DNA from: Escherichia coli
GTDB lineage: Bacteria; Pseudomonadota; Gammaproteobacteria; Enterobacterales; Enterobacteriaceae
Direction: 5' to 3' (one strand)
Length of the DNA stretch: 64,000 nucleotides
Assembly (NCBI RefSeq): GCF_016026235.1
Contig: NZ_CP065613.1
The notes under the pieces were generated by a model that saw only the letters and a list, made by a program, of their open reading frames with translations, did no database searches and was not told the DNA's origin. Below are positions 1,342 through 57,730 of the stretch, in pieces. The translations under genes were made by a program, and so were the position numbers. Every line of letters begins with the position of its first letter. Position 1 is the stretch's first letter.

Positions 1342-1443
1342 GCCGGATGCGGCGTGAACGCCTTATTCGACCTACAAAACTATGCAAATTCAATGCATTG
1401 CAGGAGTCGAATAGGCCTGACAGGCGTAGCACGTCAGACGGTG
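1342..1443. repeat. REP-like palindromic units (BIME-type) downstream of nadE
   Basis: gccggatgcggcgtgaacgcc...cctac and a second partial unit; resembles E. coli REP consensus by eye. Confidence 0.4.
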
Positions 1444-47724: not shown

Positions 47725-49020
<1,296 letters not shown>

Positions 49021-49022
49021 AA

Positions 49023-49058
49023 CTATCAGCCGGGTCATTATCGCCTGGCTGATTTTTA
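49023..49058 (+). terminator. Candidate terminator downstream of yeaH
   Basis: atcagccgg...cctggctgat inverted repeat followed by ttttag. Confidence 0.45.
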
Positions 49059-49166
49059 GCTCACTGTAAATTATCTCATTTATTACATACATTAGCTTAC
49101 AATCGCTTTAAATATGACAGCATAACCTTTACACAATTTAGTTCCAGAAAACAATCATTCGGAAAA

Positions 49167-50642
49167 ATGATTCAGTCAACACGTATTTCCATGGGGTTAT
49201 TCTTTAAATATTTTTTATCGTTAACGAAAATTGATCCTGGTCAAAACTATATATCTCTGCCATCAATAAAATCCAGCACTCACATTGCTCTCCTTTTTAT
49301 GGTTTCTATGGGTACACAAAAATTAAAAGCTCAAAGCTTTTTTATTTTCAGTTTATTGCTGACGTTAATTTTATTTTGCATTACTACCTTATATAACGAA
49401 AACACAAATGTAAAACTCATCCCACAGATGAATTACCTGATGGTTGTTGTGGCTTTGTTTTTCCTTAACGCCGTCATTTTTCTTTTCATGTTAATGAAAT
49501 ATTTTACTAACAAACAAATTTTACCAACACTCATTTTAAGCCTTGCATTTTTAAGTGGCCTTATCTATTTAGTTGAAACCATTGTAATTATCCATAAACC
49601 AATTAACGGCAGTACACTGATCCAGACAAAGTCGAATGATGTTTCTATTTTCTATATTTTCCGCCAACTCAGTTTTATTTGTTTAACCTCGCTGGCGCTC
49701 TTTTGTTATGGAAAAGACAACATCCTTGACAACAATAAGAAAAAAACTGGCATTCTGTTGCTGGCGCTGATTCCTTTTTTAGTTTTTCCCCTTCTGGCAC
49801 ACAATCTGAGCAGTTATAACGCTGACTATTCTTTGTATGTCGTCGATTACTGTCCGGACAACCATACTGCGACCTGGGGAATCAACTATACAAAAATATT
49901 GGTTTGTCTGTGGGCATTTTTACTGTTCTTTATTATCATGCGTACACGATTAGCCAGCGAACTATGGCCGTTAATAGCATTATTATGTCTGGCATCGCTA
50001 TGCTGCAACTTACTTCTACTGACTCTGGATGAGTATAATTATACCATCTGGTATATCAGTCGCGGGATTGAAGTCTCCAGTAAACTGTTTGTTGTGTCTT
50101 TTCTGATTTATAACATTTTTCAGGAGCTGCAACTCTCCAGCAAACTGGCAGTTCATGATGTGCTGACCAATATTTATAATCGGCGCTACTTTTTCAACAG
50201 CGTAGAGTCATTATTGTCGCGACCTGTTGTTAAGGACTTCTGTGTCATGCTGGTTGATATTAATCAGTTCAAGCGCATCAATGCCCAATGGGGACATCGT
50301 GTGGGTGATAAAGTGCTGGTTTCAATTGTCGATATTATCCAGCAAAGCATCCGCCCCGATGATATTTTAGCGCGACTGGAGGGTGAGGTGTTTGGCTTGC
50401 TATTTACCGAACTCAATAGTGCCCAGGCAAAAATCATTGCGGAACGTATGCGTAAAAATGTCGAACTCCTGACCGGCTTTAGTAACAGATATGATGTTCC
50501 TGAACAAATGACCATCAGTATTGGCACGGTTTTTTCAACGGGTGACACGCGTAATATCTCGCTTGTCATGACGGAAGCAGATAAAGCCTTACGCGAAGCG
50601 AAAAGCGATGGGGGCAACAAAGTGATTATTCATCATATTTAA
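49167..50642 (+). CDS. yeaI: GGDEF-domain membrane protein with degenerate active site
   Basis: 491 aa; N-terminal multi-TM region; GGDEF position reads EGEVF (…ARLEGEVFGLLF…). Confidence 0.85.
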   Translation: MIQSTRISMGLFFKYFLSLTKIDPGQNYISLPSIKSSTHIALLFMVSMGTQKLKAQSFFIFSLLLTLILFCITTLYNENTNVKLIPQMNYLMVVVALFFLNAVIFLFMLMKYFTNKQILPTLILSLAFLSGLIYLVETIVIIHKPINGSTLIQTKSNDVSIFYIFRQLSFICLTSLALFCYGKDNILDNNKKKTGILLLALIPFLVFPLLAHNLSSYNADYSLYVVDYCPDNHTATWGINYTKILVCLWAFLLFFIIMRTRLASELWPLIALLCLASLCCNLLLLTLDEYNYTIWYISRGIEVSSKLFVVSFLIYNIFQELQLSSKLAVHDVLTNIYNRRYFFNSVESLLSRPVVKDFCVMLVDINQFKRINAQWGHRVGDKVLVSIVDIIQQSIRPDDILARLEGEVFGLLFTELNSAQAKIIAERMRKNVELLTGFSNRYDVPEQMTISIGTVFSTGDTRNISLVMTEADKALREAKSDGGNKVIIHHI

Positions 50643-50822
50643 GTGCAAAAATATTCAGAGCCATGCTTTTTGCGTGGCTTTTGCATACAATTTATTACTA
50701 TTACCCCTAAATTTCCCCTCCCCAGCGGCGCAGAGATGAGTATAATTAGCGCCCCTGTGCCAGGCCGCAATCGAACTTTATCTGGTTTTCTCGTTTCACT
50801 AACCGAAGGAGTGCCATTTATC

Positions 50823-52313
50823 ATGAAATTGCACCATAGAATGCTCCGGCATTTTATCGCCGCAAGTGTCATTGTGCTGACATCTTCCTTCCTTATTTTT
50901 GAACTTGTCGCCAGCGACAGAGCAATGAGTGCCTATCTGCGCTATATCGTGCAGAAAGCAGACTCCTCCTTTCTTTATGATAAGTATCAGAATCAGAGTA
51001 TTGCCGCGCATGTGATGCGCGCTCTCGCTGCTGAGCAGTCGGAAGTGTCGCCAGAACAGCGGCGCGCCATCTGCGAGGCTTTTGAGTCTGCCAATAATAC
51101 CCATGGCTTAAACCTGACTGCCCATAAATACCCGGGCTTACGCGGCACACTACAAACCGCATCCACTGACTGCGACACAATTGTGGAAGCTGCAGCACTA
51201 TTACCCGCTTTTGATCAGGCAGTGGAAGGCAACCGCCACCAGGATGATTACGGTTCAGGTCTTGGGATGGCCGAAGAGAAATTTCACTATTATCTCGATC
51301 TCAATGACCGCTATGTCTATTTTTATGAGCCGGTTAATGTTGAATACTTTGCGATGAATAACTGGTCCTTCCTGCAGTCAGGAAGTATTGGCATCGATCG
51401 CAAAGATATTGAAAAGGTATTTACCGGGCGTACCGTATTGTCGAGCATTTACCAGGATCAGCGTACTAAACAGAACGTGATGAGTTTGCTGACGCCGGTG
51501 TATGTTGCAGGGCAGCTAAAAGGGATTGTGCTGCTGGATATTAACAAAAACAATCTGCGGAATATCTTTTACACTCATGACCGCCCTCTCCTCTGGCGTT
51601 TTCTCAATGTCACGCTAACCGATACAGATTCGGGGCGCGACATTATCATCAACCAGAGCGAAGATAATCTGTTCCAGTATGTCAGTTACGTCCATGACTT
51701 ACCGGGCGGCATTCGTGTCTCGTTATCCATTGATATTCTTTACTTTATCACGTCTTCGTGGAAAAGCGTTCTGTTCTGGATTTTGACGGCGTTAATTTTG
51801 CTGAATATGGTGCGGATGCACTTCCGCTTATACCAAAATGTGTCGCGAGAAAATATTAGTGATGCGATGACTGGACTGTATAATCGCAAAATTTTAACCC
51901 CTGAACTGGAGCAGCGGTTGCAGAAACTGGTGCAATCCGGTTCTTCGGTGATGTTTATTGCAATTGACATGGACAAGTTAAAGCTAATAAATGACACCCT
52001 CGGTCATCAGGAAGGGGATTTAGCGATTACGTTGTTAGCTCAGGCGATTAAACAATCGATTCGTAAAAGTGATTATGCCATCCGACTCGGTGGCGATGAA
52101 TTCTGCATCATTCTTGTCGATTCGACGCCGCAAATTGCAGCACAACTGCCTGAACGTATCGAAAAACGTCTGCAACATATCGCGCCGCAGAAAGAGATCG
52201 GCTTCTCTTCCGGTATTTACGCGATGAAAGAAAACGATACGTTACATGATGCGTATAAAGCTTCCGATGAGCGTTTATATGTCAATAAGCAGAACAAAAA
52301 CAGCCGTTCATGA
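50823..52313 (+). CDS. yeaJ: Diguanylate cyclase (sensor domain plus GGDEF)
   Basis: ORF 50643-52313; start at MKLHHRMLRHF gives 496 aa; intact RLGGDEF. Confidence 0.85.
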   Translation: MKLHHRMLRHFIAASVIVLTSSFLIFELVASDRAMSAYLRYIVQKADSSFLYDKYQNQSIAAHVMRALAAEQSEVSPEQRRAICEAFESANNTHGLNLTAHKYPGLRGTLQTASTDCDTIVEAAALLPAFDQAVEGNRHQDDYGSGLGMAEEKFHYYLDLNDRYVYFYEPVNVEYFAMNNWSFLQSGSIGIDRKDIEKVFTGRTVLSSIYQDQRTKQNVMSLLTPVYVAGQLKGIVLLDINKNNLRNIFYTHDRPLLWRFLNVTLTDTDSGRDIIINQSEDNLFQYVSYVHDLPGGIRVSLSIDILYFITSSWKSVLFWILTALILLNMVRMHFRLYQNVSRENISDAMTGLYNRKILTPELEQRLQKLVQSGSSVMFIAIDMDKLKLINDTLGHQEGDLAITLLAQAIKQSIRKSDYAIRLGGDEFCIILVDSTPQIAAQLPERIEKRLQHIAPQKEIGFSSGIYAMKENDTLHDAYKASDERLYVNKQNKNSRS

Positions 52314-52355
52314 TAACCTTCTGTGGTTGTTTGCTTGTAATCTCAGGAGCGTGAA

Positions 52356-52859
52356 ATGACTGAAATGGCTAAAGGAAGCGTGACGCATCAGCGGTTAATC
52401 GCTTTATTATCACAAGAAGGTGCTGATTTCCGCGTCGTTACCCATGAAGCGGTAGGTAAATGTGAAGCGGTGTCAGAAATTCGTGGCACCGCTCTAGGCC
52501 AGGGTGCTAAGGCACTGGTATGTAAAGTCAAAGGCAATGGCGTAAATCAACATGTTCTGGCGATCCTCGCAGCCGATCAACAGGCCGATCTGAGCCAACT
52601 CGCCAGCCATATAGGCGGATTACGCGCTTCGTTGGCCAGCCCGGCGGAAGTCGATGAACTCACAGGCTGTGTCTTCGGCGCGATCCCCCCTTTCAGCTTC
52701 CATCCAAAACTCAAACTGGTTGCCGACCCTCTACTCTTCGAACGATTTGATGAAATCGCCTTCAATGCAGGGATGCTGGATAAATCCGTTATTTTGAAAA
52801 CCGCGGATTATTTGCGCATTGCGCAACCAGAACTGATCAATTTCCGCCGCACAGCGTAA
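52356..52859 (+). CDS. yeaK: YbaK/ProX-like aminoacyl-tRNA deacylase family protein
   Basis: 167-aa ORF. Confidence 0.78.
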   Translation: MTEMAKGSVTHQRLIALLSQEGADFRVVTHEAVGKCEAVSEIRGTALGQGAKALVCKVKGNGVNQHVLAILAADQQADLSQLASHIGGLRASLASPAEVDELTGCVFGAIPPFSFHPKLKLVADPLLFERFDEIAFNAGMLDKSVILKTADYLRIAQPELINFRRTA

Positions 52860-52964
52860 CTAGCCTGTCCGTTCAATAAGCAGAACGGACAAAACCAGCA
52901 CAACCGCAATGGCAAAAAACGATGACGTGATAATCAGTGTCTCGACGAACATTTGATCGTTCAT
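52860..52964 (-). CDS. yoaI: Small hydrophobic protein (34 aa)
   Basis: Minus strand encodes [34 protein letters not shown]. Confidence 0.6.
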
Positions 52965-53133
52965 AGTATGCCCCCGGGAGATAGCTGTTTTCACGTTATT
53001 GTTAGCGTGCACAAATGGCAGTTTGATGACAGTTCGCCTGATTTTTTATGCAAAAAACGTAAAGATTTTCTACTTCCTTCCTGCAGCAAGCGTAAAGTAA
53101 GCAGGCTTATTATTTTTTGGCAAGGAAACCACG

Positions 53134-53580
53134 ATGTTTGATGTCACTTTGCTGATCCTGCTCGGGTTAGCTGCGCTGGGCTTTATCAGTCATAACACCA
53201 CTGTCGCCGTTTCAATTCTGGTGTTGATCATTGTCCGCGTCACACCGTTAAGCACCTTTTTCCCGTGGATTGAAAAACAGGGGCTAAGTATCGGGATAAT
53301 CATTCTGACGATTGGCGTTATGGCCCCCATCGCCAGCGGGACGCTACCGCCCTCAACCTTGATTCACTCGTTTCTGAACTGGAAATCGCTGGTGGCAATT
53401 GCAGTAGGCGTTATTGTCTCCTGGCTGGGTGGGCGCGGCGTGACGTTAATGGGCAGCCAGCCGCAACTGGTTGCTGGGCTGCTGGTGGGCACTGTTTTAG
53501 GCGTAGCGCTGTTTCGCGGCGTACCGGTTGGCCCGCTTATTGCCGCGGGTCTGGTTTCGCTGATTGTGGGGAAACAGTAG
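53134..53580 (+). CDS. yeaL: UPF0756 inner membrane protein
   Basis: 148-aa hydrophobic ORF. Confidence 0.8.
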
Positions 53581-54358
53581 TTAATCCCGCAATATATCGG
53601 CCTGGCGTTTGCCCCAGGCCTTTCTTAAACATAGTAATAAAGGCCGTTGTTGAATCATACCCCAGCGTATGAGCAACTTTCTGTACAGTATCGCCTTTCA
53701 CTAATCCCTGAAGCGCCATAATCAGCTGTAACTGCTGTCGCCACTGGCGAAAACTCAACCCCGTCTCTTTTACTATCAGTCGGGCAAGATTGCGTTCACT
53801 CATCGCAAAAAAGCCAGCCCATTGCCCCAATGACCCCCACTCGACGGGCTCTTTCGCCATCATCTCCACCATCGCGCGGATTTTAGGATGAGAAGAAACG
53901 GGTAGGTGCAGCTGTTGTTGTGGCTGCTGAGGGAGTTCATCAAACAGGACCTGAATTAATCTGCGGGTCATCGGCTCAGCACGCTGAGTCGTCGTCCTGT
54001 TTGCCAGAGTTAAAATTAATTCCCGGCATAAGGGCGATATTTTCAATGTGCAACAGGTTGTCGGCATTGTCACTGCGCTGGGTTCGATAAACAGAAAACA
54101 GAGTTCAGCGTTAGCTGTCACTTGATTGCTATGTTCCACCCCGCCCGGTATCCAAACCGCATATTGCGGCGGCACCATCCACAAAGCATTTTCCACCGTA
54201 CAGGTAATTGCACCATGTAATGCTAGTATCAGCTGTCCTTTGCGGTGCTGATGTACAGGACTGGTTAACTCATCCGTTCCGGCGTGAATACAAAATGCGA
54301 CCGCGGCTTCATGGTGTCGGTCGGGTTCATAGCCATTGAGATTCAACCTGTGCATCAT
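53537..54358 (-). CDS. yeaM: AraC-family transcriptional regulator
   Basis: 273-aa ORF with N-terminal cupin-like region and C-terminal AraC HTH; overlaps yeaL convergently by 44 bp. Confidence 0.82.
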
Positions 54359-54454
54359 TTTGTCCGAATTTAGCGATAATTTGTCATTTTAGCTTGATTC
54401 AACATAACAATAAAAACGGTAAGGTACAGCCTCGTTTGTAACAATGAGAAGCAT

Positions 54455-55636
54455 ATGACCTGTTCAACTTCATTAAGCGGCAAAAACAGGATTGTCCTTA
54501 TCGCTGGCATTCTGATGATTGCCACAACATTACGCGTCACCTTTACCGGCGCAGCGCCGTTACTGGATACGATTCGTTCCGCTTACTCGCTGACGACAGC
54601 GCAAACCGGCTTATTAACCACCCTGCCATTATTGGCCTTTGCGCTAATCTCACCTTTGGCTGCCCCGGTGGCGCGACGTTTTGGTATGGAACGTAGCCTG
54701 TTTGCCGCGTTACTTTTGATCTGTGCAGGTATCGCAATTCGTTCTCTCCCTTCGCCTTACTTATTATTTGGCGGTACAGCGGTCATTGGCGGTGGGATTG
54801 CATTAGGCAATGTCTTACTGCCAGGATTAATTAAACGCGATTTCCCTCATTCCGTCGCCAGACTTACCGGCGCATATTCCCTGACAATGGGAGCTGCAGC
54901 GGCACTGGGATCGGCTATGGTCGTGCCGCTGGCTTTGAACGGTTTTGGCTGGCAAGGCGCGTTGTTCATGCTGATGTGTTTTCCTCTGCTGTCTCTTTTT
55001 TTATGGCTGCCACAGTGGCGAAGCCAACAACATGCAAATTTGAGTACCTCGCGCGCCTTACATACTCGGGGTATCTGGCGTTCGCCGCTTGCCTGGCAGG
55101 TCACATTGTTTCTTGGGATCAACTCACTGGTCTATTACGTGATTATTGGCTGGCTTCCGGCGATCCTCATCAGTCACGGCTATAGCGAAGCACAGGCGGG
55201 TTCACTGCATGGTTTGCTGCAACTAGCCACAGCAGCTCCCGGTTTGCTGATCCCTCTTTTCTTACATCATGTGAAAGATCAGCGTGGTATTGCAGCGTTC
55301 GTTGCCTTGATGTGCGCAGTGGGCGCTGTTGGGCTCTGCTTTATGCCAGCGCACGCGATCACCTGGACTCTGCTTTTCGGTTTTGGTTCCGGCGCAACAA
55401 TGATACTGGGGTTGACGTTCATTGGTCTTCGGGCAAGTTCTGCGCATCAGGCGGCGGCACTCTCGGGGATGGCACAATCCGTCGGGTATTTGCTGGCAGC
55501 CTGTGGGCCGCCGCTGATGGGTAAAATACACGATGCTAACGGTGACTGGTCCGTACCACTGATGGGTGTTGCAATACTTTCACTACTGATGGCGATTTTC
55601 GGACTTTGCGCCGGGAGAGACAAAGAAATTCGCTAA
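54455..55636 (+). CDS. yeaN: MFS transporter
   Basis: 393-aa hydrophobic ORF. Confidence 0.82.
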   Translation: MTCSTSLSGKNRIVLIAGILMIATTLRVTFTGAAPLLDTIRSAYSLTTAQTGLLTTLPLLAFALISPLAAPVARRFGMERSLFAALLLICAGIAIRSLPSPYLLFGGTAVIGGGIALGNVLLPGLIKRDFPHSVARLTGAYSLTMGAAAALGSAMVVPLALNGFGWQGALFMLMCFPLLSLFLWLPQWRSQQHANLSTSRALHTRGIWRSPLAWQVTLFLGINSLVYYVIIGWLPAILISHGYSEAQAGSLHGLLQLATAAPGLLIPLFLHHVKDQRGIAAFVALMCAVGAVGLCFMPAHAITWTLLFGFGSGATMILGLTFIGLRASSAHQAAALSGMAQSVGYLLAACGPPLMGKIHDANGDWSVPLMGVAILSLLMAIFGLCAGRDKEIR

Positions 55637-55690
55637 TATCCGGTGCTATAGTGACGTGACAAATCATGCGTGAAAGGGAGAACAAACACG

Positions 55691-56038
55691 ATGAATATTC
55701 AGTGCAAACGCGTTTATGATCCGGCTGAACAGAGCGATGGTTATCGCGTACTGGTCGACCGCCTCTGGCCGCGCGGTATCAAAAAAACCGATTTAGCCCT
55801 TGATGAGTGGGATAAAGAAATCACGCCGTCAACGGAACTGCGCAAAGCCTTTCACGGCGAAGTCGTCGATTTTGCAACCTTTCGCGAGCAATATCTTGCA
55901 GAACTGGCGCAACACGAGCAAGAAGGAAAGCGGCTGGCGGACATCGCCAAAAAACAGCCGCTGACCCTGCTCTACGCAGCAAAAAACACCACGCAGAACC
56001 ATGCGCTGGTGCTGGCCGACTGGCTACGTAGCTTGTGA
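55691..56038 (+). CDS. yeaO: DUF488 protein
   Basis: ORF 55670-56038; start at MNIQCKRVYD gives 115 aa. Confidence 0.78.
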   Translation: MNIQCKRVYDPAEQSDGYRVLVDRLWPRGIKKTDLALDEWDKEITPSTELRKAFHGEVVDFATFREQYLAELAQHEQEGKRLADIAKKQPLTLLYAAKNTTQNHALVLADWLRSL

Positions 56039-56059
56039 TTTTAGTACAGCATCCGGCGG

Positions 56060-56314
56060 TTATTTTTCACCAGCCGGATGGTCCCGTCGCCACAATGCCC
56101 ATTCATCAATCGTTTCACCGCCCGGTAATTTGCAATTGTTGCTGACCCCTTGCGCTGTCGACACTGGAATGAGCGTCCCGCCCTTCTGCTGGCAATAGAC
56201 CGACGCCGGATTTGCCATACCAATCTGCGGCGGTTTAGGTGCTTCTGGCTGAGAAGAGGTTGAACAACCAGCCAGGACCAGCAAGCAAGGCAAAGCAAAA
56301 CTGATAATTTTCAT
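56060..56314 (-). CDS. yoaF: DUF333 lipoprotein
   Basis: 84-aa ORF with lipobox LAGC. Confidence 0.78.
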   Translation of the reverse strand: MKIISFALPCLLVLAGCSTSSQPEAPKPPQIGMANPASVYCQQKGGTLIPVSTAQGVSNNCKLPGGETIDEWALWRRDHPAGEK

Positions 56315-56496
56315 TTATTGATCTCACTCATTTATCTACGCTTAGAGTATCGCGGTATCGTTTTGTTTTGCAGCACTATTTTTATTACATTCACTCAAAA
56401 CATATTACGTCTTGTTTCATCTTTGTTGGTGATGTTTTATCATGCCTGCAAAGATTAAATAATCAGCATTTACCCGCCGTATCCTGGAGTTGTTTC

Positions 56497-57522
56497 GTGT
56501 CAGATCAGATTATCGCCCGCGTCTCGCAATCCCTTGCCAAAGAACAGTCACTGGAAAGTCTGGTCCGACAGCTTCTGGAGATGCTGGAAATGGTCACTGA
56601 TATGGAATCAACCTACCTGACCAAAGTGGATGTCGAAGCGCGCCTGCAGCATATTATGTTTGCCCGTAACAGCCAGAAAATGCACATCCCGGAGAATTTT
56701 ACCGTCTCGTGGGATTACTCGTTATGCAAACGCGCCATTGATGAAAACTGCTTTTTCAGCGATGAAGTCCCTGACCGTTGGGGCGACTGTATTGCGGCAC
56801 GCAATCTTGGCATCACCACATTTCTGAGCACGCCAATTCACTTACCGGATGGATCATTCTATGGCACGCTTTGCGCCGCCAGCAGTGAGAAGCGCCAGTG
56901 GAGTGAACGCGCGGAACAGGTTTTACAGTTATTCGCCGGACTGATTGCACAATATATTCAAAAAGAGGCGTTGGTTGAACAGCTGCGCGAAGCCAATGCC
57001 GCGCTGATTGCGCAATCGTATACCGACTCGTTAACCGGGCTACCGAATCGGCGGGCGATTTTTGAAAATCTGACAACACTGTTTTCCCTCGCCCAGCATC
57101 TTAACCATAAGATAATGATCGCGTTTATCGATCTGGATAACTTCAAATTAATCAATGATCGTTTTGGTCATAATAGTGGCGATCTGTTTCTCATTCAGGT
57201 TGGCGAGCGCCTTAATACGCTCCAGCAAAATGGCGAAGTTATTGGTCGTCTCGGTGGTGATGAGTTTTTGGTTGTTTCACTAAACAACGAGAATGCGGAT
57301 ATTTCGTCGCTGCGAGAACGTATTCAACAGCAAATACGTGGAGAATATCACTTAGGTGATGTTGATTTGTATTATCCCGGTGCCAGTCTTGGCATAGTAG
57401 AAGTCGATCCTGAAACGACCGATGCAGACAGTGCCCTGCATGCTGCCGATATCGCGATGTATCAGGAGAAAAAACACAAACAGAAAACACCTTTTGTCGC
57501 GCATCCAGCGCTACATTCCTGA
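56497..57522 (+). CDS. yeaP: Diguanylate cyclase (GAF plus GGDEF)
   Basis: GTG start at 56497 (MSDQIIARVSQ) gives 341 aa; intact RLGGDEF. Confidence 0.82.
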   Translation: MSDQIIARVSQSLAKEQSLESLVRQLLEMLEMVTDMESTYLTKVDVEARLQHIMFARNSQKMHIPENFTVSWDYSLCKRAIDENCFFSDEVPDRWGDCIAARNLGITTFLSTPIHLPDGSFYGTLCAASSEKRQWSERAEQVLQLFAGLIAQYIQKEALVEQLREANAALIAQSYTDSLTGLPNRRAIFENLTTLFSLAQHLNHKIMIAFIDLDNFKLINDRFGHNSGDLFLIQVGERLNTLQQNGEVIGRLGGDEFLVVSLNNENADISSLRERIQQQIRGEYHLGDVDLYYPGASLGIVEVDPETTDADSALHAADIAMYQEKKHKQKTPFVAHPALHS

Positions 57523-57554
57523 GGCGTATTCACATCCTTTTGATTGGTGATAAC

Positions 57555-57653
57555 ATGCGAATCGGTATTATTTTTCCGGTTGTAATCTTCATTACAGCGG
57601 TCGTATTTTTAGCATGGTTTTTTATTGGCGGCTATGCTGCCCCGGGAGCATAA
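57555..57653 (+). CDS. yoaK: Small membrane protein (32 aa)
   Basis: Encodes MRIGIIFPVVIFITAVVFLAWFFIGGYAAPGA; stop 2 bp before yoaJ. Confidence 0.6.
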   Translation: MRIGIIFPVVIFITAVVFLAWFFIGGYAAPGA

Positions 57654-57655
57654 AG

Positions 57656-57730
57656 ATGAAAAAAACAACGATTATTATGATGGGTGTGGCGATTATTGTC
57701 GTACTCGGCACTGAGCTGGGATGGTGGTAA
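57656..57730 (+). CDS. yoaJ: Small membrane protein (24 aa)
   Basis: Encodes MKKTTIIMMGVAIIVVLGTELGWW. Confidence 0.6.
   Translation: MKKTTIIMMGVAIIVVLGTELGWW

Follow-up and report, generated by a model that had tools for sequence, protein, structure and literature searches.

CdgI (YeaI) of Escherichia coli: a degenerate GGDEF protein, probably a c-di-GMP receptor, encoded near the canonical cyclases DgcJ and DgcP

GGDEF proteins in which the active site (A-site) has degenerated and the RxxD motif has been retained can be receptors of cyclic di-GMP (c-di-GMP) rather than enzymes, as is the case for PopA of Caulobacter and PelD of Pseudomonas, both of which bind c-di-GMP through that motif. 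CdgI (YeaI), encoded with DgcJ (YeaJ) and DgcP (YeaP) on the plus strand of the 64-kb stretch of Escherichia coli DNA analysed here (contig NZ_CP065613.1; hereafter the window), is likened to them by description only: the N-terminal domains differ (receiver domains in PopA, transmembrane (TM) segments and a GAF domain in PelD), as do the outputs. For CdgI itself, a degenerate A-site and an intact inhibitory site (I-site) were already described by Sarenko et al. (PMC5635695), whose work reports that the purified GGDEF domain binds c-di-GMP (Fig. S4 of that work), that this domain forms several strong heteromeric contacts with GGDEF domains and that the protein, which escapes detection in standard culture, is repressed by CsrA and toxic if over-expressed, and proposes that CdgI inhibits other diguanylate cyclases (DGCs) in a manner modulated by c-di-GMP. 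Table 1 of Spurbeck et al. 2012 (PMC3484386), which tabulates the same catalytic residues as those scored below, gives 'KNAHDR EGEVF' for yeaI and 'KNDHDR GGDEF' for yeaJ and yeaP, and Cimdins-Ahne et al. 2023 (PMC10459773) placed a 'catalytically non-functional' YeaI in the MASE4 family together with DgcT and DgcX. A sedimentation screen found deletion of cdgI to be of minor effect (PMC8117528). From the analysis reported here, we consider it highly probable that CdgI is a pseudo-enzyme serving as an I-site receptor of c-di-GMP, that DgcJ and DgcP are canonical cyclases and that the region is a known E. coli segment.

Domain architecture and catalytic motifs of the three GGDEF proteins

The preliminary description of this DNA had noted three genes ending in GGDEF domains within 8.4 kb, yeaI, yeaJ and yeaP, and had assigned to their products a multi-TM, a periplasmic-type and a GAF sensor region, respectively. 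The gene names are correct (RefSeq has cdgI, dgcJ and dgcP), and domain searches combined with a simple hydropathy scan bear out both statements. Pfam places a GGDEF domain (PF00990) in CdgI (152.3 bits, E = 1.2e-44), DgcJ (135.8 bits, E = 1.5e-39) and DgcP (140.1 bits, E = 7.2e-41), against a cut-off of 23.8 bits and with matches running from profile positions 1-3 to 160-161 of 161. The N-terminal region of CdgI matches the integral-membrane sensor domain MASE4 over profile positions 5-237 of 239 (165.8 bits, cut-off 28.4), and the hydropathy scan shows a run of overlapping hydrophobic segments from aa 52 to 289. In DgcJ, a GAPES1 domain (PF17155) covering all 274 profile positions (1-274 of 274, 501 bits) is bracketed by hydrophobic segments at aa 7-32 and 308-334, and the protein passes the NCBIfam equivalog NF040885 with 745.4 bits (cut-off 500). 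DgcP contains a region matching both GAF_2 (PF13185; 41.6 bits, gathering threshold 28.6) and GAF (PF01590; 36.5 bits, gathering threshold 22.4), and the hydropathy scan shows no hydrophobic segment in it. For YeaJ of Salmonella and for its homologue in enterohaemorrhagic E. coli (EHEC), Li et al. 2022 (PMC9637222) reported that GAPES1 binds autoinducer-2 (AI-2) and switches on c-di-GMP synthesis. Judged from their sequences, both DgcJ and DgcP are canonical diguanylate cyclases, and they differ in their inputs, namely a periplasmic GAPES1 domain, for which AI-2 sensing is reported, in the former and a cytoplasmic GAF domain in the latter.

The positions scored in the three GGDEF domains were the DxD metal site, K, IND, H, GD, RxxD, R, GG[DE]EF and K..GRN, which are established from PleD and other cyclases. 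A competent cyclase was defined as one whose A-site reads GG[DE]EF (rarely [AS]GDEF), with an acidic fourth residue. DgcJ and DgcP fall within this definition and CdgI, with EGEVF, falls outside it. The segment RLEGEVFGLL of YeaI had been proposed to lie where YeaJ and YeaP keep RLGGDEF, and two independent alignments agree on this placement: MAFFT sets 'ARLEGEVFGLL' of CdgI in the same columns as 'IRLGGDEFCII' of DgcJ and 'GRLGGDEFLVV' of DgcP, and phmmer, run against two cyclases of solved structure, 6zxm and 3ign, places the CdgI segment on 'SRFGGEEFVIL' and 'GRYGGEEFGII', EGEVF being co-located with the GGDEF position in both.

The complete signatures read VDINQFKRINAQWGHRVGD / RPDD-ILARL-EGEVF / EAKSDGGN in CdgI, IDMDKLKLINDTLGHQEGD / RKSD-YAIRL-GGDEF in DgcJ and IDLDNFKLINDRFGHNSGD / QNGE-VIGRL-GGDEF in DgcP. 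Where intact MASE4-GGDEF relatives have DID, IND, GGEEF and G[RK]N, CdgI has DIN, INA, EGEVF and GGN; its departures from the canonical motifs thus comprise G405E and E408V in the A-site, replacement of the second Asp of DID by Asn and of the Asp of IND by Ala, and replacement of the Arg of GRN by Gly. DgcJ and DgcP retain DxD, K, IND, H, GD and R, and neither has GRN. Because the A-site is without its first Gly and its fourth-position Glu, and other substrate- or metal-site residues are missing too, CdgI most likely cannot make c-di-GMP. The RxxD I-site is present in CdgI (R396-P-D-D399, followed by ILARL and E405) and in DgcJ (R414-K-S-D417, followed by YAIRL and G423). The motif table shows no RxxD I-site in DgcP, which reads QNGE at that position and in which product inhibition through this site would not be expected.

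Origin and maintenance of the degenerate motif

A single protein search with CdgI yielded 39 cluster representatives, from which a motif table and a neighbour-joining tree were built. The Escherichia-type CdgI proteins form one clade in this tree, with identities from 99% down to 64% and with E. albertii (P0010) included. Throughout the clade the first Gly of the motif is lost, position 1 being E or D, and the GRN place reads GGN or SGN. Six different A-site pentapeptides occur among the 13 Escherichia-type sequences (EGEVF, EGDVF, EGEEF, DGEVF, EGNVF and EGKRF), and RxxD is invariant in every MASE4-GGDEF sequence of the search set that has a GGDEF domain. The sister group (P0020, P0024 and P0025, 57-62% identical to CdgI) reads GGEEF, DID, IND and GRN, and farther MASE4-GGDEF homologues, approximately 40-46% identical, likewise keep GGEEF, DID, IND and G[RK]N, unlike CdgI. 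The genes for P0020 and P0024 sit between yeaH and yeaJ and are followed by yeaK, yeaL, nimR and nimT. Because they occupy the same yeaH-[gene]-yeaJ slot, they are positional orthologues of cdgI and not paralogues corresponding to DgcT or DgcX. DgcT (YcdT) and DgcX are active E. coli cyclases that have, like CdgI, a MASE4 domain, a GGDEF domain and an RxxD I-site (PMC5635695, PMC10459773). The three Citrobacter-type orthologues share with CdgI its architecture, its yeaH/yeaJ slot and a similarly low G+C content (37-38%) but, unlike CdgI, carry a canonical GGEEF and all the other catalytic signatures, and are presumably active cyclases. This distribution is most simply read as a single inactivation in the ancestor of the Escherichia-type clade, after which the A-site would have drifted freely and the I-site would have stayed constrained.

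The G+C content is 34-36% in the yeaH-cdgI spacer and MASE4-coding part (49021-50147) and 38% in cdgI as a whole, against 50% in the window. A recent horizontal acquisition of cdgI was considered on account of its composition and found to be unsupported. The orthologues of E. albertii and of the Citrobacter-type genomes lie at the same position and are equally AT-rich (37-38% G+C), and the low G+C content is therefore old and does not point to a recent transfer. A link to the very low expression reported for cdgI is conceivable.

Ratios of nonsynonymous to synonymous divergence (dN/dS) were calculated by the Nei-Gojobori method on gap-free alignments of 447 codons, counted from Met45, for the cdgI genes of the window, K-12, an E. 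coli allele with 98.2% DNA identity, two Escherichia-type genomes with the variant motifs EGEEF and EGDVF, and E. albertii. The reading frame is intact and without indels in all six sequences. Wherever substitutions are numerous enough for an estimate, cdgI gives a dN/dS of 0.06-0.11, with similar values for its MASE4 and GGDEF portions; dS in these comparisons reaches about 1.0, a value close to saturation for this method with which the less divergent comparisons are nevertheless concordant. Near-identical E. coli pairs (dS 0.03-0.07) agree over the whole gene, their per-domain ratios being noisy at 0-4 substitutions. CdgI is clearly under purifying selection and is, for this reason, not a decaying gene. 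In the same genomes, dgcJ (where available) has a dN/dS of 0.014-0.046 and yeaH of about 0.01, and at the protein level CdgI evolves approximately 3-5 times faster than its neighbours.

At least 80% of cdgI is present in one piece in 5408 of 5426 complete genomes. An IS5-family insertion splits the gene in FDAARGOS_943 (H11, NZ_CP065615.1 927023-929415), and a deletion in strain Ec-2939 (H50, NZ_CM192133.1) leaves only its first 218 bp. According to PMC8117528, certain stocks of K-12 MG1655 carry an IS1 element in dgcJ, and a cdgI-dgcJ' deletion has arisen spontaneously. Widespread pseudogenisation, as might be read from clusters of short CdgI proteins (P0013, 345 aa, 639 members; P0023, 281 aa, 934 members; P0019; P0027), was rejected on tracing P0013 and P0023. 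These large clusters do not represent real alleles: P0013 comes from a frameshifted draft assembly, in which yeaG is split too, and P0023 runs to a contig end. The singletons P0017, P0026 and P0035 look like fusions of the CdgI N-terminus to YeaL or DgcJ (MASE4 with DUF441; MASE4 with GAPES1 and GGDEF; a 560-aa 'DgcJ' with the CdgI N-terminus) and would therefore be either rare deletions from cdgI into downstream genes or assembly errors. When positions 49299-50642 of the window were compared with loci L008, L004 and L005, the synonymous divergence of cdgI from the EGEEF-variant genome was roughly double the divergence of its flanking genes yeaH and dgcJ (0.84 vs 0.44-0.46); between the two Citrobacter-type genomes it was 3-4 times that of the flanks (1.25 vs 0.32-0.38). 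This could reflect allelic exchange or recombination at cdgI, or else AT-rich codons biasing the method.

Readings of CdgI function and of the gene cluster

With its canonical RxxD kept, CdgI would bind c-di-GMP at this site and would most likely be a membrane-anchored c-di-GMP receptor, which may engage other GGDEF domains heteromerically and thereby sequester or modulate active cyclases. Catalytic inactivity in vitro and an inhibitor or scaffold mechanism are what we infer for this protein. The earlier prediction that YeaI has lost cyclase activity and acts as a receptor or scaffold is supported, at the level of sequence, by the further catalytic residues lost, by the invariant RxxD and by the purifying selection. 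Several observations weigh against the receptor reading. The two-hybrid assay behind the heteromeric contacts used over-expressed domains in isolation, and under laboratory conditions CdgI escapes detection (PMC5635695). The heterologous cyclase WspR rescues the biofilm defect of a CFT073 yeaI deletion in no-salt LB, and YeaI is listed among the DGCs with 'verified' activity, on genetic grounds only (PMC3484386). Sanchez-Torres 2011 is cited in PMC6824119, and thus here second-hand, for yeaI raising c-di-GMP in BW25113. The loss of the GRN arginine is, moreover, not diagnostic alone because the active enzymes DgcJ and DgcP are also without it.

The rescue by WspR, the 'verified' listing and the BW25113 report would be accommodated if CdgI were still a working, perhaps weak, diguanylate cyclase whose phenotypes arise from c-di-GMP synthesis, as would the retention of the metal-binding Asp of DIx, of the Lys, Asn, His, Asp and Arg and of the third-position Glu. 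We regard this as very unlikely, given that GG[DE]EF is substituted at two places, its first Gly and the Glu in fourth position, that DgcX E360A, altered at that same Glu, was built as a 'catalytic mutant' (PMC10459773) and that the A-site drifts freely within the clade (EGNVF, EGKRF), which is unexpected for a working active site. In glycerol medium WspR failed to rescue the biofilm defect of the yeaI deletion (PMC3484386), a rescue by extra c-di-GMP is equally expected for a c-di-GMP receptor, and PMC5635695 and PMC10459773 term CdgI degenerate or non-functional. The degenerate motif could instead be a sign of decay and CdgI a functionless relic heading to a pseudogene. A protein undetectable in standard conditions and toxic when over-expressed (PMC5635695), the AT-richness of its gene, the occasional IS5 insertion or deletion in complete genomes, the minor effects of a laboratory deletion (PMC8117528) and nonsynonymous change 3-5 times faster than that of dgcJ would all suit such a relic. 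This explanation is highly improbable in view of the low dN/dS of both domains across E. coli, the variant-motif Escherichia-type genomes and E. albertii, of the frame kept intact in six sequences, of the presence of most of the gene in nearly all complete genomes, of an RxxD fixed while the A-site varies, and of the origin of the large 'truncated' clusters, which go back to a draft assembly with a frameshift and to the end of a contig.

The proximity of the three genes raises the separate matter of their coupling. A six-frame scan of the 64-kb window with a profile made from the three domains found no further GGDEF domain. If 19 GGDEF genes, the number of GGDEF domains given for E. coli K-12 in PMC5635695, are placed at random on a 4.64-Mb circle, 0.0094 triples are expected within 8356 bp (simulated P = 0.0089); this p-value was calculated post hoc, after a single cluster had caught the eye. 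A recent tandem duplication was rejected as the source of the three genes, in view of the pairwise GGDEF-domain identity of 24-25% (MAFFT) and of the unrelated N-terminal domains. E. albertii has all three genes in matching positions, and two Citrobacter-type genomes have the cdgI-dgcJ pair so placed. The proximity of the three genes is conserved across Escherichia genomes.

A functional module in which CdgI would serve specifically to regulate DgcJ, encoded next to it, and/or DgcP could account for the clustering, and it would draw on the low probability of such a cluster by chance (p ~0.009), on the arrangement of cdgI and dgcJ, direct neighbours on one strand whose 180-bp spacer holds no terminator-like site, on the conservation of the pair in Citrobacter-type genomes and of all three genes in E. 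albertii, and on the contacts of the CdgI domain with several other GGDEF domains (PMC5635695). However, the partners in these contacts are not named in the available text of that work, eight unrelated genes on both strands lie between the cdgI-dgcJ pair and dgcP, cdgI has its own regulators in RstA and SrsR, and the p-value is that of a single cluster spotted by eye, which makes such a module doubtful. We hold as similarly unlikely the more elaborate proposal that the inactivation at the base of Escherichia turned an active MASE4 cyclase into a selected, c-di-GMP-gated 'anti-cyclase' that heterodimerises with DgcJ or other DGCs and switches them off, cdgI and dgcJ forming a local module. The support for this proposal lies in its evolutionary half only, that is, the lineage-specific loss, the purifying selection and the invariant I-site.

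Locus, gene starts and significance

Positions 49167 and 57522, the bounds of the stretch singled out in the preliminary description, are exactly the start of cdgI and the stop of dgcP, all three GGDEF genes being core-chromosome genes of E. coli (Table 1). Megablast of 49000-57700 matched 5424 of 5426 complete E. coli genomes with 95-99.9% identity, in almost all of them as a single chromosomal copy, and the annotations across the matched genomes are cdgI, dgcJ, yeaK, yoaI, yeaL, nimR, nimT, yeaO, yoaF and dgcP. The segment is the conserved E. coli chromosomal yeaG-yeaH-cdgI-dgcJ-yeaK-yoaI-yeaL-nimR-nimT-yeaO-yoaF-dgcP. CdgI (YeaI, b1785), DgcJ (YeaJ, b1786) and DgcP (YeaP, b1794) of K-12 are encoded by the same genes in the same order, with the identical motifs EGEVF, GGDEF and GGDEF. 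The proteins of the window differ from those of K-12 MG1655 by one residue in CdgI (E481D), one in DgcJ (Q388L) and two in DgcP (Y63H and R200Q), none of them of substance.

Table 1 Features of the cdgI-dgcP region and of the remainder of the window (positions in the window).
Feature	Position	Strand	Residues	Description and evidence
cdgI (yeaI)	49167..50642	+	491 aa	ATG start; MASE4-GGDEF inner-membrane protein with degenerate A-site; RefSeq, Pfam
CdgI MASE4	49428..50123	+	aa 88-319	integral-membrane sensor domain, multi-TM; PF17158, E=1.4e-48
CdgI GGDEF domain	50148..50621	+	aa 328-485	degenerate; PF00990; full-length alignment to solved cyclases
CdgI I-site RPDD	50352..50363	+	aa 396-399	RxxD, intact; ends five residues before the A-site; motif table
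CdgI A-site EGEVF	50379..50393	+	aa 405-409	degenerate, at the GG[DE]EF position; alignments, motif table
dgcJ (yeaJ)	50823..52313	+	496 aa	ATG start; TM - GAPES1 - TM - GGDEF; RefSeq, NCBIfam, Pfam
DgcJ GAPES1	50913..51734	+		PF17155, E=7.9e-151
DgcJ GGDEF domain	51858..52304	+		Pfam
DgcJ I-site RKSD	52062..52073	+		motif table
DgcJ A-site GGDEF	52089..52103	+	aa 423-427	motif table
dgcP (yeaP)	56497..57522	+	341 aa	GTG start; cytoplasmic GAF-GGDEF diguanylate cyclase; RefSeq, Pfam
DgcP GAF_2/GAF	56545..56961	+		PF13185/PF01590, E=1.8e-10 / 8.4e-9
DgcP GGDEF domain	57019..57486	+		Pfam
DgcP QNGE	57226..57237	+		in the place of RxxD; motif table
DgcP A-site GGDEF	57253..57267	+	aa 253-257	motif table
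Terminator-like hairpin	49025..49053	+		11 pairs, then T-run; just past the yeaH stop; consensus match only
ES036 (CssrF) small RNA	1376..1418	+		Rfam, 38.0 bits, gathering threshold 37.6; borderline

The list of open reading frames (ORFs) for 47-60 kb contains plus-strand frames with GGDEF-type ends at 49167-50642, 50643/50823-52313 and 56368/56497-57522. The long upstream forms of dgcJ (556 aa, extended by 60 codons from a GTG at 50643, directly after the cdgI stop) and of dgcP (extended by 43 codons from a TTG at 56368) are mechanical artefacts; the match of the NCBIfam DgcJ model begins at about residue 64 of the long ORF, in which the annotated start is residue 61. In the 491-aa CdgI, the first 44 residues (49167-49298) are not conserved and MASE4 starts only at aa 88. 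The orthologues of E. albertii and of the Citrobacter-type genomes, called as 445-447 aa, have an in-frame stop 10-23 codons upstream of the equivalent of Met45 (L003 5971-6000, L004 5932-6000 and L005 5959-6000), and it is probably at Met45 (position 49299) that the conserved start of cdgI lies. Transcription from a promoter-like site at 49128-49155 would begin nearly on the ATG at 49167. The terminator-like hairpin separates cdgI from yeaGH and is followed by the AT-rich (34% G+C) upstream region; promoter and terminator scans of the region returned no more sites than in shuffled sequence. Binding of RstA and SrsR upstream of yeaI/cdgI has been reported (PMC6824119, PMC9181523).

The Rfam search gave no match in the cdgI-dgcP region, its sole match in the whole window being the borderline ES036. 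The interval between dgcJ and dgcP is variable in gene content, because nimR-nimT is missing between yeaL and yeaO in E. albertii (L003 9834-10725) and in the Escherichia-type genome that carries P0007 (L008 7436-8326; corresponding window stretch, 53134-56038), and Citrobacter-type genomes have, besides nimR-nimT, an additional glutamine-amidotransferase-family gene before yeaO.

The EGEVF degeneration of YeaI and its role as a c-di-GMP binder are already published, and the interpretation given in the preliminary description is right and not new. Our comparison adds the syntenic dating of the change to the Escherichia lineage, the joint loss of several catalytic residues, the drift of the A-site against a fixed I-site, the dN/dS evidence of selective maintenance and a DgcP without I-site, none of which would surprise a specialist or matter much as a discovery. 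The Citrobacter-type enzyme, presumably active, and the probable pseudo-enzyme of Escherichia nonetheless make up a natural matched pair for the function of degenerate GGDEF domains.

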